The notes beneath the pieces are model-generated. The model saw nothing but the letters and a program-made list of their open reading frames with translations. It searched no databases and was not told the DNA's origin. The translations under genes were made by a program, and so were the position numbers. A stretch of DNA of 63,095 nucleotides, the filler included, from Octopus bimaculoides (Eukaryota): assembly GCF_001194135.2 (NCBI RefSeq). It is 7 parts of 7 records of this genome, joined end to end, with 100 filler letters (N's around TTAATTAATTAA, not from the genome) between each part and the next. Parts side by side here need not be neighbours in the genome. Positions count along the whole stretch, not along the records: positions 1 to 25,881 come from NC_068988.1; positions 25,982 to 30,935 come from NC_068989.1; positions 31,036 to 37,879 come from NC_068982.1; positions 37,980 to 51,165 come from NC_068991.1; positions 51,266 to 53,748 come from NW_026426964.1; positions 53,849 to 58,325 come from NC_068984.1; 1 more part is not named here. One strand, written 5' to 3'. Below are positions 2,120 through 58,325 of this stretch, piece by piece. Position 1 is the first letter of the stretch. Every line of letters starts with the position of its first letter.

Positions 2120-2203
2120 TCATTACGGCCGTTTCGAGCGACTCTTTTAATTGATCAATGAAAGCATTGCATCACTACAAAGAAAACCCTTCTCATCAGA
2201 TGA
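2120..2203 (-). ncRNA. type I hammerhead ribozyme motif (HHR-1)
   Basis: Minus strand: UCAU-CUGAUGA-G(57-nt stem II domain)C-GAAA-CGGCCG-UA/AUGA; intact core, palindromic stem III ACGGCCGU, GUA site, 4-bp stem I. Confidence 0.7.
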
Positions 2204-2609
2204 TCGTATAGACTTCAAGCATAAAGGACAAGTTAGATATTTAAACATATTCATATCATCACTACTAGAGAGCAAATATTTATAATGATTCCGCTACTAA
2301 ATTTTTTGGCAGAATGAAAAAAAAAAGGACAGTAGAGCAACATACAAACTAGAAATTAGCGTAGGCTAGACGGAGTGGGTATGAATGAGAGTAGCGACCC
2401 TGTTATCTATGCATCGAAGACAATTGAGAGAATGTAGTGTTCAAAACATCTAAAATTAGATCATTGGGGGAGTTATAAATTAATTAGTATCATGACATAC
2501 CGTTCGACTATCAAAGAAAATGGAATTTTACATCTATATGTAGAGTATGTATGTATATATAAATACGTATATGTATATATGTGTGTGTGTATTTGTGCAT
2601 GCATTGGTT

Positions 2610-2800
2610 CCTATGCACCCCCATCACCGCTTGACAACCGGTGTTGGTGTGTTCCCATAACTTAGCGGATCGATAAAAGGGTTAGATAGAATAAGTACAA
2701 GGCCTTTAAAACAAGTTACTCTGGCTGATTCATTCGACTAAAATTCCTCACGGCATTGCCCCGGCATGGCCGCAGTCTAATGACTGAAACAAAAAATAAA
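2610..2800 (+). mobile_element. tRNA-SINE family B, 3' half
   Basis: GCTTGACAACCGGTGTTGGTGTG...CATGGCCGCAGTCTAATGACTGAAAC tail. Confidence 0.75.
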
Positions 2801-2914
2801 AGATTAAACACGAAAGAAATGTCCAAGGATGTAGACGTGACTGTGTGGCTAAGAAGAACAACTTTCACGTTGTTCCAGTTCACTCAGCTGTAGAAATGAG
2901 TCACGACATCACTG

Positions 2915-54707: not shown

Positions 54708-56059
54708 TTACTAAAAATGAATATTGTCAACTGAGACAGATGAGACGATACCGATTTGTTAACCTATCCCTTTTCGAGATTAGACTATTGTTGTGAATAC
54801 AAATTTCACTTGAAACAATTTTAGTTTCATCACACTCCAATACATTTCTTTTTATTTTTCAATATATCCGGGTAAATTAAAATGCTAACGTTTTCTGTCA
54901 AAATATATTTCTCTACGTTGTGAAAGTAACTATATATTCCAGAACGAGATTGATTAACACAAACTGTGTTTACATTCATGATATTATTCCCTATTCTTCC
55001 GTTTCTAGTTTATTGCTCTTACATTAAGCCTAGATTAATATCAGTATTATTTGTCGATATATTATTAGTCGCTATACACGCACACACACACACGTATATA
55101 TATACGCATAAATATATATATATACAAATGTATTTATACATATATATATATATATATATATATATATATATATATATATATATATATATATATATATATA
55201 TATATATACATGTGTGTGTGTGTGTGTGTGCGTGTGTGTGTGTTCAGGAATGAAAGTGCTTTAGGGGGATTAGGTTGACTGTAGAGAAGTGGAAATTAAG
55301 TGGAAATTGGAACTGGATACCAATGCGTTCAGTTACGAAGAGGAGATTAATAATAAACGCTTTACCAGAGGCTCAGCATATCAAATGTCTCCAAAAATTT
55401 GTGATATATCACGTTTGCCATTCTAAGTGCGTAACGAACATTTTAATTTTCTTTCCCCTATGATCATTGACAGGTCAAATAATAGATCGGTCTTACGAAA
55501 TCAGTCACGGAAGACAATACAATCGGCCTACTCGAGATAGAAAAATTCATATATTTTCCAACTGTTTTCTTAATAGTTTACTGGTTTCTGTTTTTGGATT
55601 GCGGCTACAATGGATTCCGTCATCATTGGTTTAGTCATCATCTGTATTCCCAGTACATATTTCATTGTGACATTTATTTTATGGATCACTTTTCACCAAT
55701 AAACAACGTTACGAGGCATAAATAGCTTAAAATAATAAACAGTGCCACGCTAATACACACACTGAATACAGACACCCACCCAGGCGTACACACAGGCAGA
55801 CAGGCATATAAATATATATATATACAGAGAGAGGGGAGAAAGAGAGAGAGAGACGGGGGGCATATGCGTAGCTCTGTGCTACTAAGTTGGGAGTGAACCC
55901 AGAACCACGAGATTTATTAGCACACAGACACGCCTGCGCCAATACATATATGTGTATATATATATATGTGTGTGTGTGTATGTGTGTGTGTGTGTATGTG
56001 TGTAAAAATATATATGTATGTATGTATGTATGTATGTATGTATGTATGTATGTGTGTAT

Positions 56060-56225
56060 GTGTGTGCGTGTCCGTGAGAGTGTGTTTGTATTTTTCCCCC
56101 ATACCGCTTGATAACCAGTCTTAGTTTGTTTAATTACCCATAAAAAATGGCGGTTCGGCAAAAAGACCCGATAGAATAGTCCCTGGATTGGAATAACTGC
56201 AGGTGTCGATTTGTTCGAATGAACC
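56060..56225 (+). mobile_element. SINE-B 3' half, decayed
   Basis: CCGCTTGATAACCAG..GCGGTTCGGCAAAAGACCCGATAGAATA. Confidence 0.6.
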
Positions 56226-57139
56226 CTGAATGAAGTAATATGTACTTGTATACGCGTATCAAATATATATATGGATATGAATATGTAAGTGTATATTCAT
56301 GTATGTGTGTGTGTTTAAATATATACATACACACGCACACATATACATACATATATATGTATATATGCTTATATTCATATAAATATAATATATATATATG
56401 AATATACAAATATGTTTGTATATACATACACACACACACACACACACACACAGATATATATATATATATATATATATATATATATATATATATACAGTTC
56501 TATATTTAGTAAATAATATTACAGTAAATAATGTATATAATTCCTCATTTCTTANNNNNNNNNNNNNNNNNNNNNNNNNNNNNNNNNNNNNNNNNNNNNN
56601 NNNNNNNNNNNNNNNNNNNNNNNNNNNNNNNNNNNNNNNNNNNNNNNNNNNNNNNNNNNNNNNNNNNNNNNNNNNNNNNNNNNNNNNNNNNNNNNNNNNN
56701 NNNNNNNNNNNNNNNNNNNNNNNNNNNNNNNNNNNNNNNNNNNNNNNNNNNNNNNNNNNNNNNNNNNNNNNNNNNNNNNNNNNNNNNNNNNNNNNNNNNN
56801 NNNNNNNNNNNNNNNNNNNNNNNNNNNNNNNNNNNNNNNNNNNNNNNNNNNNNNNNNNNNNNNNNNNNNNNNNNNNNNNNNNNNNNNNNNNNNNNNNNNN
56901 NNNNNNNNNNNNNNNNNNNNNNNNNNNNNNNNNNNNNNNNNNNNNNNNNNNNNNNNNNNNNNNNNNNNNNNNNNNNNNNNNNNNNNNNNNNNNNNNNNNN
57001 NNNNNNNNNNNNNNNNNNNNNNNNNNNNNNNNNNNNNNNNNNNNNNNNNNNNNNNNNNNNNNNNNNNNNNNNNNNNNNNNNNNNNNNNNNNNNNNNNNNN
57101 NNNNNNNNNNNNNNNNNNNNNNNNNNNNNNNNNNNNNNC

Positions 57140-58325
57140 AAACATCACTAAGGAAGAAAAGTTCGCTATCAAAAGACTACAAGGAGACAATTCCATCATA
57201 GTTCTCCCAGCGGACAAGGGAAATGCTACAGTGGTGATGAACAAGTCTGACTACTCCGAAAAATTGGCAAGTCTTATAAGTGATGGTAGCTACAGTAGAG
57301 TAAAGAAAGACCCAACTCTGAAAACAGAGAGGAAGTTGTCACAGATCTTGATCAAGAACAAGGATCACTTCACACCAATGAAGTACAGACAGCTGACTCA
57401 ACACTACAGTAAACTACCACACATGTACGGTCTCCCAAAGATTCACAAGGAAGGTATTCCACTAAGACCTATAGTGAGCTGTAGATGTTCAGCGTGCCAT
57501 CCACTGAGCCGCTTCTTGATGGATATAATCAGTCCATTAGCAGGAAAGTCAACATCATACGTGAAGAATTCCACCCACTTCACAGAATTGATCAAGGATA
57601 CCCCCATTGAATCCAACGAGATGGTGAGTCTAGATGTGATAAGTCTATTCACCAAAGTCCCAACTGGTGAAGCACTATCGGTGATTCAAGAAAAACTAGT
57701 GACAGACACCCATCTAAAAGAACGCACTAGTATACCAATAAGAAGCCTGATGGAAATGTTGACCTTCTGTGTAGGAACTACCTACTTCAGTATGGACACT
57801 AATATATATCGACAAAGGATGGTTTAGCTATGGGTTCGCCATTATCACCGATAATAGCCAATATATACATGGAATACTTCGAGAATTTGGCTTTAGGATC
57901 AACACCACTAAAACCAACCCTATGGCTGCGATACGTTGATGACATCTTTATTCTCTGGCCCCACCAGCAAGATGTCCAAAAGCTGTTAGATCATGTGAAC
58001 TCAATAAATCCATCCATACAGTTCACCATGGAAAAGGAACAGAACAATCAGCTGGCATTCCTGGACGTATTAATAACACGCACCGAGTATGGATTCAGGA
58101 CATCCGTATATCGCAAGCCAACCTTCACTGGACGATACCTTAACTTCAATTCCCACCATCCATACAGTGTAAAGAGAGGAATTGCTCAGTGCCTAAAACA
58201 CCAAGCAAAGAATATAAGTAGCGATCGTGATACCCACCACGAGGAAATGATCAAGCTCAGTAACAATCTATTAAGAAACAACTACCCCAAGAACATACTA
58301 TCTACTCCAAATATGAAGAAAAGAG
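57140..58325 (+). mobile_element. Penelope-like element reverse transcriptase (Poseidon-like), one frameshift, both ends in gaps
   Basis: PADKGNATVVMNK, YGLPKIHKEGIPLRPIVS, SLDVISLFT, frameshift at about 57827, GLAMGSPLSP, RYVDDIF, LAFLDVLI, YRKPTFTGRYLNFNSHHP. Confidence 0.92.

Follow-up and report, generated by a model that had tools for sequence, protein, structure and literature searches.

A multicopy 350-bp unit with a Hydra-type hammerhead motif in Octopus bimaculoides, a probable retrozyme-type derivative of Penelope-like elements

The closest described relatives of the sequences considered here are the hammerhead ribozymes of the Hydra clade of Penelope-like elements (PLEs) and the non-coding elements known as retrozymes. 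According to Files S1 and S2 of Craig et al. (2021, PMC8557442), Hydra-clade hammerheads have a palindromic stem III of 8-10 nt that runs from AC to GU, and the elements have (TA)n targets; in the hammerheads of File S2, stem II comprises 3-7 bp and is often flanked on both sides by a base that is unpaired or mismatched. The marks of the clade given in the same paper are RWK, DKT and a CxCx5C linker. One hammerhead of File S2, Hydra-1_oBim, belongs to Octopus bimaculoides and has the stem III ACCA-A-UGGU. The subject of this report is a stretch of 63,095 nt of the genome of this octopus, joined from seven parts (the window), which holds three hammerhead motifs, called HHR-1, HHR-2 and HHR-3, together with PLE remnants. 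The motifs probably originate from the 3' ends of Hydra-clade PLEs, and a 350-bp unit around HHR-2 is probably a non-autonomous, retrozyme-type derivative of such elements.

Metazoan retrozymes of the kind without long terminal repeats (non-LTR retrozymes) have been described from mussel, coral and axolotl, the mussel units being 350-390 bp long (Cervera and de la Pena 2020, PMC7229834). Vertebrate retrozymes are presented as PLE derivatives in a preprint that uses an array of at least two units as a criterion, and the PLE origin of animal retrozymes is based there on 35 genomes, most of them from vertebrates and none from a mollusc (Li et al. 2026, 10.64898/2026.07.22.740005). The retrozymes described so far have canonical hammerheads with a short stem III, arrays of at least two units and abundant circular RNA. 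We know of no enzyme that has been identified as the one moving them.

Among cephalopods, 235 Rfam hammerhead-1 loci have been reported from the giant squid (PMC6962438), and the main text of a paper on PLE activity in O. vulgaris (PMC13282606) is without mention of ribozymes. The first-pass annotation of the window, made from the sequence alone, was aware of no cephalopod description, a premise weakened by the squid loci and by the O. bimaculoides PLE hammerhead in PMC8557442. No cephalopod retrozyme was found in the openly readable literature; Repbase, Dfam or some supplements may already list the family. New here is the multicopy 350-bp unit of HHR-2 with its Hydra-type ribozyme, octopus PLE hammerheads being already in print. 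Of the two, the 350-bp family is of greater interest, the motifs alone adding little.

The window consists of repeat-rich animal DNA, in which 9,809 positions are N and about 53 kb are called sequence. The evidence from beyond it consists of sequencing reads and contigs placed on positions 23500-24268 alone, of protein searches and of published papers. Unless stated otherwise, shuffle controls were 300 local dinucleotide shuffles with gaps and microsatellites fixed in place. The three motifs are:

2120..2203, minus strand: HHR-1, type I hammerhead motif; core at 2124-2199 intact, stem I of 4 bp, stem III ACGGCCGU, GUA site
24062..24107, plus strand: HHR-2; core at 24068-24101, stem III ACCA-U-UGGU, GUC site, predicted cut after 24101
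48667..48753, minus strand: HHR-3, type I hammerhead, complete by prediction; core at 48673-48747, stem III ACAUAUGU, GUU site

HHR-1, HHR-2 and HHR-3 are real type I hammerhead sequences. A descriptor scan of the window found the core CUGANGA / GAAA / NUH complete in each of them. The loose descriptor has exactly three matches in the window, namely these three, against a shuffle mean of 0.08, and none of the 300 shuffles reaches three; the comparison with dinucleotide-shuffled sequence that the first-pass annotation had proposed thus came out, within the window, in favour of the motifs. A later descriptor, composed after the data had been seen, gives three matches against a mean of 0.005 (0 of 1000 shuffles). 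Stem III and the core alone are not significant, as they are reached by 42 of 300 shuffles. The strict descriptor, with three stems of at least 4 bp each, is passed by HHR-3 alone (1 of 300 shuffles).

The predicted probabilities of the pairs 2.1-1.1 and 10.1-11.1 are 0.91 and 0.99 for HHR-3, 0.13 and 0.08 for HHR-1, and 0 and 0 for HHR-2. HHR-3 has stems I, II and III of 6, 10 and 4 bp and a stem II loop of 36 nt, its hammerhead shape is present in the predicted minimum-energy fold, and it scores 27.2 bits with the Rfam model Hammerhead_1, the cut-off of which is 34 bits. HHR-1, where stem II is merely 2 bp followed by a 57-nt inner region, scores 14.7 bits (E 0.9), below this cut-off. The window copy of HHR-2 has C-C at the pair 2.1-1.1, and its stem II of 3 bp contains one A-C mismatch and is unpaired in the canonical register; Hammerhead_1 gives no match. 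By these predictions only HHR-3 is structurally complete and would reach the active fold, the window copies being mostly decayed. The motifs had been annotated as three with intact cores and self-complementary stems III. The coordinates, the cores and the stem III strings were confirmed; an intact ribozyme with three stems is left in HHR-3 only, and one of the strings, ACCAUUGGU, has U-U at its centre and is hence an imperfect palindrome. Self-duplexes of the palindromic stem III segments are predicted at -7 to -14 kcal/mol.

The motifs are like Hydra-clade PLE hammerheads in their type I topology, in their AC..GU stem III and in the unpaired or mismatched bases beside stem II. When three broken motifs described below are counted, five of the six have an 8-10-nt palindromic stem III of this kind, the exception being the motif at 51515-51560. 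Further points of likeness in the window are the position of the motif near the 3' end of an element, the (TA)n targets and a C-terminal endonuclease signature. Stem III of HHR-2 is one loop base apart from that of Hydra-1_oBim. The flanks and stems I-II differ from Hydra-1_oBim when compared by eye, and the window motifs are therefore of families other than this one. With 3-10 nt, loop 2 of the Hydra hammerheads is also far shorter than that of HHR-1 and HHR-3. A search of the PMC8557442 supplement for six stem III strings returned one irrelevant match, line breaks in its FASTA files possibly hiding others. Solo short-form PLE hammerheads, of which there are examples in Lottia and Crassostrea, are scattered from truncated PLEs and have palindromic stems III, GUU sites and AU-rich flanks, as in the window; their stem III, however, is mostly of 4 nt, a form also present in some relatives of a reverse transcriptase (RT) near 57 kb discussed below, and in this the window motifs differ. 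The six cassettes are unrelated outside the core, in line with the separate families proposed for the intact three: none of their 15 pairwise alignments is better than shuffles, the best being at 11 of 200.

The sequence around HHR-2 is organized as follows:

23897..24266, plus strand: non-coding unit of 350 bp, terminally redundant by 20 bp and with TA-rich flanks, candidate non-LTR retrozyme monomer
23897..23916, plus strand: first copy of the 20-bp direct repeat, identical to 24247-24266 at 19 of 20 positions
24247..24266, plus strand: second copy of the 20-bp direct repeat
24043..24058, no strand assigned: short imperfect palindrome 5' of HHR-2
6060..6162, plus strand: partial second copy of the 3' part of the unit, 75% identity, without hammerhead, up to a 10-N gap

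The unit has a GC content of 41%, and its longest stop-free frame is 70 aa. Non-LTR retrozymes were taken to be non-coding, 150-450 bp long and below 50% GC, with one type I hammerhead, and the unit agrees with this description on every count. It has no open reading frame (ORF), unlike Hydra-clade PLEs. It is like the metazoan retrozymes in its length of 350 bp, its lack of coding sequence, its GC content below 50% and its one type I hammerhead per unit, and also in its many diverged copies, its head-to-tail continuity and the presence of PLEs in the same genome. The unit, with its copies and their joins described below, would fit a permuted PLE derivative as well as a non-LTR retrozyme. No A or B boxes of RNA polymerase III were found in the unit, and a degenerate pattern from its conserved block has 0 matches in metagenome and viral contigs. 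TA runs flank the unit and follow HHR-3, in agreement with insertion at (TA)n, a weak sign as TA runs are common throughout the window. Just upstream, at 23005-23886, lies a Tc1/mariner-like remnant recognized by eye, whose inverted ends are located at 23005-23046 and 23845-23886; a hairpin (70%) is present at 23793-23846.

The unit is multicopy. Apart from the partial copy in the window, it is covered by tens to more than 100 variant contigs per position in X2, a DNA run of the same organism from which 2,439 contigs were placed on the 769-bp stretch, the mariner-like remnant included. Position 24067 is A in 1,648 of 1,932 of the X2 depth (about 85%), and the C-C mismatch of HHR-2 is therefore peculiar to the window copy on that side. 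The maxima of X2 depth are at 23942-23993, in the ribozyme bin and at 24176-24227, the ribozyme bin having a depth of 8,513 compared to 1,972 and 3,858 in its neighbours.

Other copies are joined head to tail. Two X2 contigs contain a joint from 24251 to 23902, that is 350 back, with 68 letters on the shorter side. The bridging length fits the period of 350 exactly in five of seven end-to-start joints among those listed, the others being off by 2 and 10. Furthermore, 46 X2 contigs run past 24266, and their letters agree by eye with 23917-23946 at 23 of 30 positions. The family runs on from unit end to unit start, either because its copies form arrays or because they are monomers in permuted form. 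Because of this continuation in other copies the 20-bp repeat is sequence of the element itself. Its interpretation as a target-site duplication is ruled out, since other copies carry the repeat and continue into the unit start. At 23897-24266 itself, the unit is a monomer, and this copy has a defective hammerhead. The retrozyme-like population that had been suggested for the octopus is thus supported for the HHR-2 family only, which is multicopy and has head-to-tail joins of period 350 in DNA, HHR-1 and HHR-3 being solo in the window.

Any tandem repeat would give head-to-tail joins, and the unit might be an ordinary satellite or rolling-circle repeat, the motifs being chance or functionless look-alikes. 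In agreement with this, no motif reaches the Rfam cut-off, and a scan of the whole window with Rfam gave 140 matches with no hammerhead among them. Moreover, half-motifs arise in unrelated repeats of the window: ten GAAA-stem III-UH halves were seen where a mean of 2.0 is expected, several of them within other repeats, and broken half motifs therefore weigh little singly. This explanation is nevertheless very improbable in view of the shuffle tests, the long stems I and II of HHR-3, the match to the Hydra-clade architecture and the depth peak on the ribozyme bin.

A second explanation of the joins is that all motifs, HHR-2 too, are pieces of the pseudo-long terminal repeats of autonomous PLEs, with no independent non-autonomous family. 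The joins would then come from the 3'-to-5' junctions of tandem PLE insertions combined with internal deletions. Most PLE hammerheads are single and are ascribed to truncated PLEs in PMC4209133, and PLEs are described in PMC8557442 as giving partial tandems and leaving 30-40-bp tails. The X2 depth dips at 23994-24071, which might be the site of an ORF upstream of the ribozyme, and no RNA junction reads were seen at the joints listed. However, about 23-38 contigs carry variants across this same low-depth stretch, one contig of 375 nt is unbroken over 23906-24206, and 23964-23997 is linked to 24064-24087 within single contigs; many copies therefore have no ORF there. In addition, neither the unit nor its immediate surroundings yielded any homology to PLE proteins. 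This origin of the unit is unlikely.

The RNA evidence comes from two raw runs, X22 and X23, of which 12.9 and 12.0 million records were used, about 6% of each run, the library selection being unstated. On 23500-24268, 408 reads of X22 and 468 of X23 were placed; most were less than 90% alike, and most fell within the mariner part. Relatives of the mariner remnant reach an RNA depth of up to 127 per mate direction, above the hammerhead unit, the conserved blocks of which have a depth of about 1-20 in both directions. In a further run, X6, taken by guess to be RNA, one identical contig of 170 nt with a depth of 2.7 starts at 24102, the predicted start of the 3' cleavage product; this is a single low-depth contig, and contig starts cannot show RNA ends.

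Several observations weigh against the interpretation of the HHR-2 unit as a retrozyme-type derivative of Hydra-clade PLEs. In X22 and X23 the ribozyme bins have an RNA depth of 0-5 for each mate direction. No pile-ups of read starts or ends are present at HHR-2 in these two runs at their low depth. Back-junction reads, which the first-pass annotation had proposed as the mark of circular RNA, were likewise absent, with 0 RNA reads in X22 and X23 at the 15 of 70 joints that were listed. The low RNA depth makes it doubtful that these libraries contain an abundant circle. The X2 contigs listed, the longest of which over the unit is 375 nt, include none that spans two consecutive ribozyme-bearing units. 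The summed X2 depth, about 1,100-57,000 in the bins that make up the unit compared to 20-48 per listed contig, indicates many copies and is not a copy number. The fold of the unit is only modestly better than that of 100 shuffles (z -1.81 with 4 of 100 as good when linear; z -1.95 with 5 of 100 when circular), and HHR-2 is sequestered in it by prediction. Unlike the described retrozymes, the unit has a Hydra-type stem III, is a defective monomer here, and its RNA is scarce. Finally, no autonomous element that shares sequence with any cassette was found in the window or by the protein searches, and the assignment of HHR-1, HHR-2 and HHR-3 to the Hydra clade therefore depends on motif shape only.

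The octopus might instead contain a diverse set of currently active retrozymes, with HHR-1, HHR-2 and HHR-3 each at the head of a family of small circular RNAs. Three unrelated cassettes within 53 kb of called sequence, the start of the X6 contig at 24102 and the 31 recently active PLE families reported for O. vulgaris (PMC13282606) would be in line with such a population. It is, however, improbable, because two of the three motifs are defective, the window shows neither a tandem copy nor a terminal redundancy for HHR-1 and HHR-3, the RNA depth is low with no junctions, and the X6 start is that of one low-depth contig.

Both PLE coding remnants reported in the window are real:

51587..51934, minus strand: C-terminal GIY-YIG endonuclease remnant, probably of a Hydra-clade-type PLE
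57141..58324, plus strand: PLE reverse transcriptase in two frames, with a frameshift near 57810, gaps at both ends and no hammerhead linked

The remnant at 51587-51934 matches the GIY-YIG domain weakly (E 0.019). A phmmer search gave 81 relatives at E<=0.001, none of them at <=1e-10, and CxLCxxE is present in 74 of the 81. A profile of these relatives has the remnant as its only convincing match in the window, with the caveat that the same query seeded the set. The marks RWK, DKT and the CxCx5C linker were observed in P0219, a full-length cluster-mate of one endonuclease relative; the window remnant keeps the endonuclease end only, and its placement in the clade by way of this relative is provisional. 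A word-indexed homologue search with the 51.6-51.9 kb endonuclease fragment gave 0 among 89 candidates, and an Atlas embedding of the fragment is near GIY-YIG and mollusc-rich clusters at 0.87-0.88, which serves as a lead only. A decayed hammerhead-like motif at 51515-51560 sits after the end of the endonuclease, where the 3' hammerhead of a PLE belongs. No Hydra homology was found in the window near HHR-1, HHR-2 or HHR-3. The hairpin at 51626-51663 (84%) overlaps the end of the endonuclease homology.

The RT near 57 kb has a DKG motif in the window frame and matches RVT_1. It has 449 relatives that are up to 72% identical, one of which, P0031, has a GIY-YIG domain. Its sequence has almost no similarity to a Hydra-type protein (E 0.03) and looks to be of the Penelope/Poseidon type; the clade name Poseidon is our assumption, based on sequence motifs and the contrast with the Hydra marks. 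A short hammerhead, with a stem III of 4 nt, occurs at three of eight related metagenome loci; at two of the three the motif is identical. These short PLE-type hammerheads are downstream of the RTs in the metagenome contigs L003 (3176-3208), L004 (5126-5158) and L005 (5976-6003). The DKG motif, the E of 0.03 to Hydra and the short-form relatives make it unlikely that this RT is what the window motifs were partnered with. As their driver it is not favoured, some of its relatives carrying a 4-nt stem III and its similarity to Hydra being small. The link between the hammerheads and PLEs holds and can be narrowed to the Hydra clade by the motif architecture and the adjacent endonuclease remnant, the 57-kb RT being probably not the driver.

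HHR-1 and HHR-3 are likely to be the solo 3' ends of 5'-truncated PLE insertions of other families than HHR-2. Both cassettes stand in the window without terminal redundancy and without a tandem copy, as is expected of truncated PLE ends. AAUAAA is found directly downstream of HHR-3, followed by a hairpin and then by (TA)n. The two features that adjoin HHR-3 are:

48595..48649, no strand assigned: AT-rich hairpin (80%) 3' of HHR-3, into (TA)n
48761..48846, no strand assigned: palindrome 5' of HHR-3, 93%, with arms of 41 bp

PLE insertions often bear an inverted truncated copy (PMC8557442), and the palindrome, by analogy, is likely an inverted duplication left by PLE insertion. By inspection its arms have two differences, each a transition at CpG. 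A palindrome had been reported 5' of both HHR-2 and HHR-3; the description is good for HHR-3, and the one at HHR-2 (24043-24058) is short and imperfect. The palindrome of HHR-3 adjoins a common repeat, present with 84% identity at 48844-49073 and 42254-42489, which is presumably a fragment of a long interspersed element. Close to HHR-1, an abundant family similar to short interspersed elements, with TA-rich tails, is represented at 1917-2100 and again at 14535-14718, 16498-16589, 34686-34892 and 41414-41591.

The broken motifs are the following:

4390..4437, minus strand: broken motif that keeps GAAA, the A site and a Hydra-type 10-nt stem III (ACAG-AG-CUGU), with damage in the 5' core
51515..51560, minus strand: heavily decayed hammerhead-like motif, about 75 nt beyond the point where the endonuclease homology ends, immediately ahead of a microsatellite
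53078..53136, minus strand: half motif with a 7-bp stem II hairpin, GAAA, 10-nt stem III and U site

All three had been annotated as broken hammerheads; a good GAAA-stem III-UH half survives at 4390-4437 and at 53078-53136. The motif at 51515-51560 is about four changes away from a hammerhead, and its identification comes from its position after the endonuclease. At 53078-53136 the upstream CUGANGA is absent, and a CUGAUGA is present downstream at the edge of a gap of 729 N (52337-53065); judged by this arrangement, 53066-53136 on the minus strand could possibly be part of a hammerhead unit, either a short tandem or a circular permutation, that the gap conceals. The motif at 4390-4437 adjoins an L1-like RT fragment and not a PLE. 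Fragments of an L1-like non-LTR element are located at 2919-3215, 3995-4368 and 60074-60397 on the minus strand and are 53-66% identical to two unnamed JGI proteins. An extra GAAA-palindrome half motif at 5797 was discounted as chance-like, as by eye it sits in a short element with inverted ends at 5729-5946.

Elsewhere in the window, a full-length 5S rRNA match (86.4 bits, cut-off 38) is present on the minus strand at 40209-40327 as a solo copy among microsatellites. The N-terminus of a mariner transposase is found on the minus strand at 12297-12797 (HTH_48 and HTH_32, both below cut-off).

By combining these observations with what is known of PLEs and retrozymes, it is possible to outline how the HHR-2 unit might multiply. 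Read-through transcription would produce an RNA across two or more units. The palindromic stem III segments of two units would then pair with each other and form a double hammerhead, which would cut out an RNA of unit length. A PLE reverse transcriptase might copy the circular or concatemeric RNA slightly past one unit. The GIY-YIG endonuclease would insert the copy at (TA)n, resulting in a monomer with a short terminal redundancy, such as that at 23897-24266. In its strongest form, the 350-bp HHR-2 family would be a living retrozyme: a non-coding circle with a Hydra-type hammerhead, excised from multimeric RNA, closed into a ring and returned to (TA)n sites by a PLE of the Hydra clade, with the unrelated HHR-1, HHR-3 and 53-kb families possibly alike. 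We put this strongest form forward tentatively, as a rather unlikely proposal.

If it is true, the HHR-2 family would be the first cephalopod retrozyme described and the first retrozyme tied to the Hydra clade. The clade-diagnostic ribozyme together with the short terminal redundancy would point to a Hydra-clade RT-endonuclease as the helper. The 350-bp family would permit a direct test of reverse transcription over more than unit length, and it would give a name to one unclassified repeat of these genomes.

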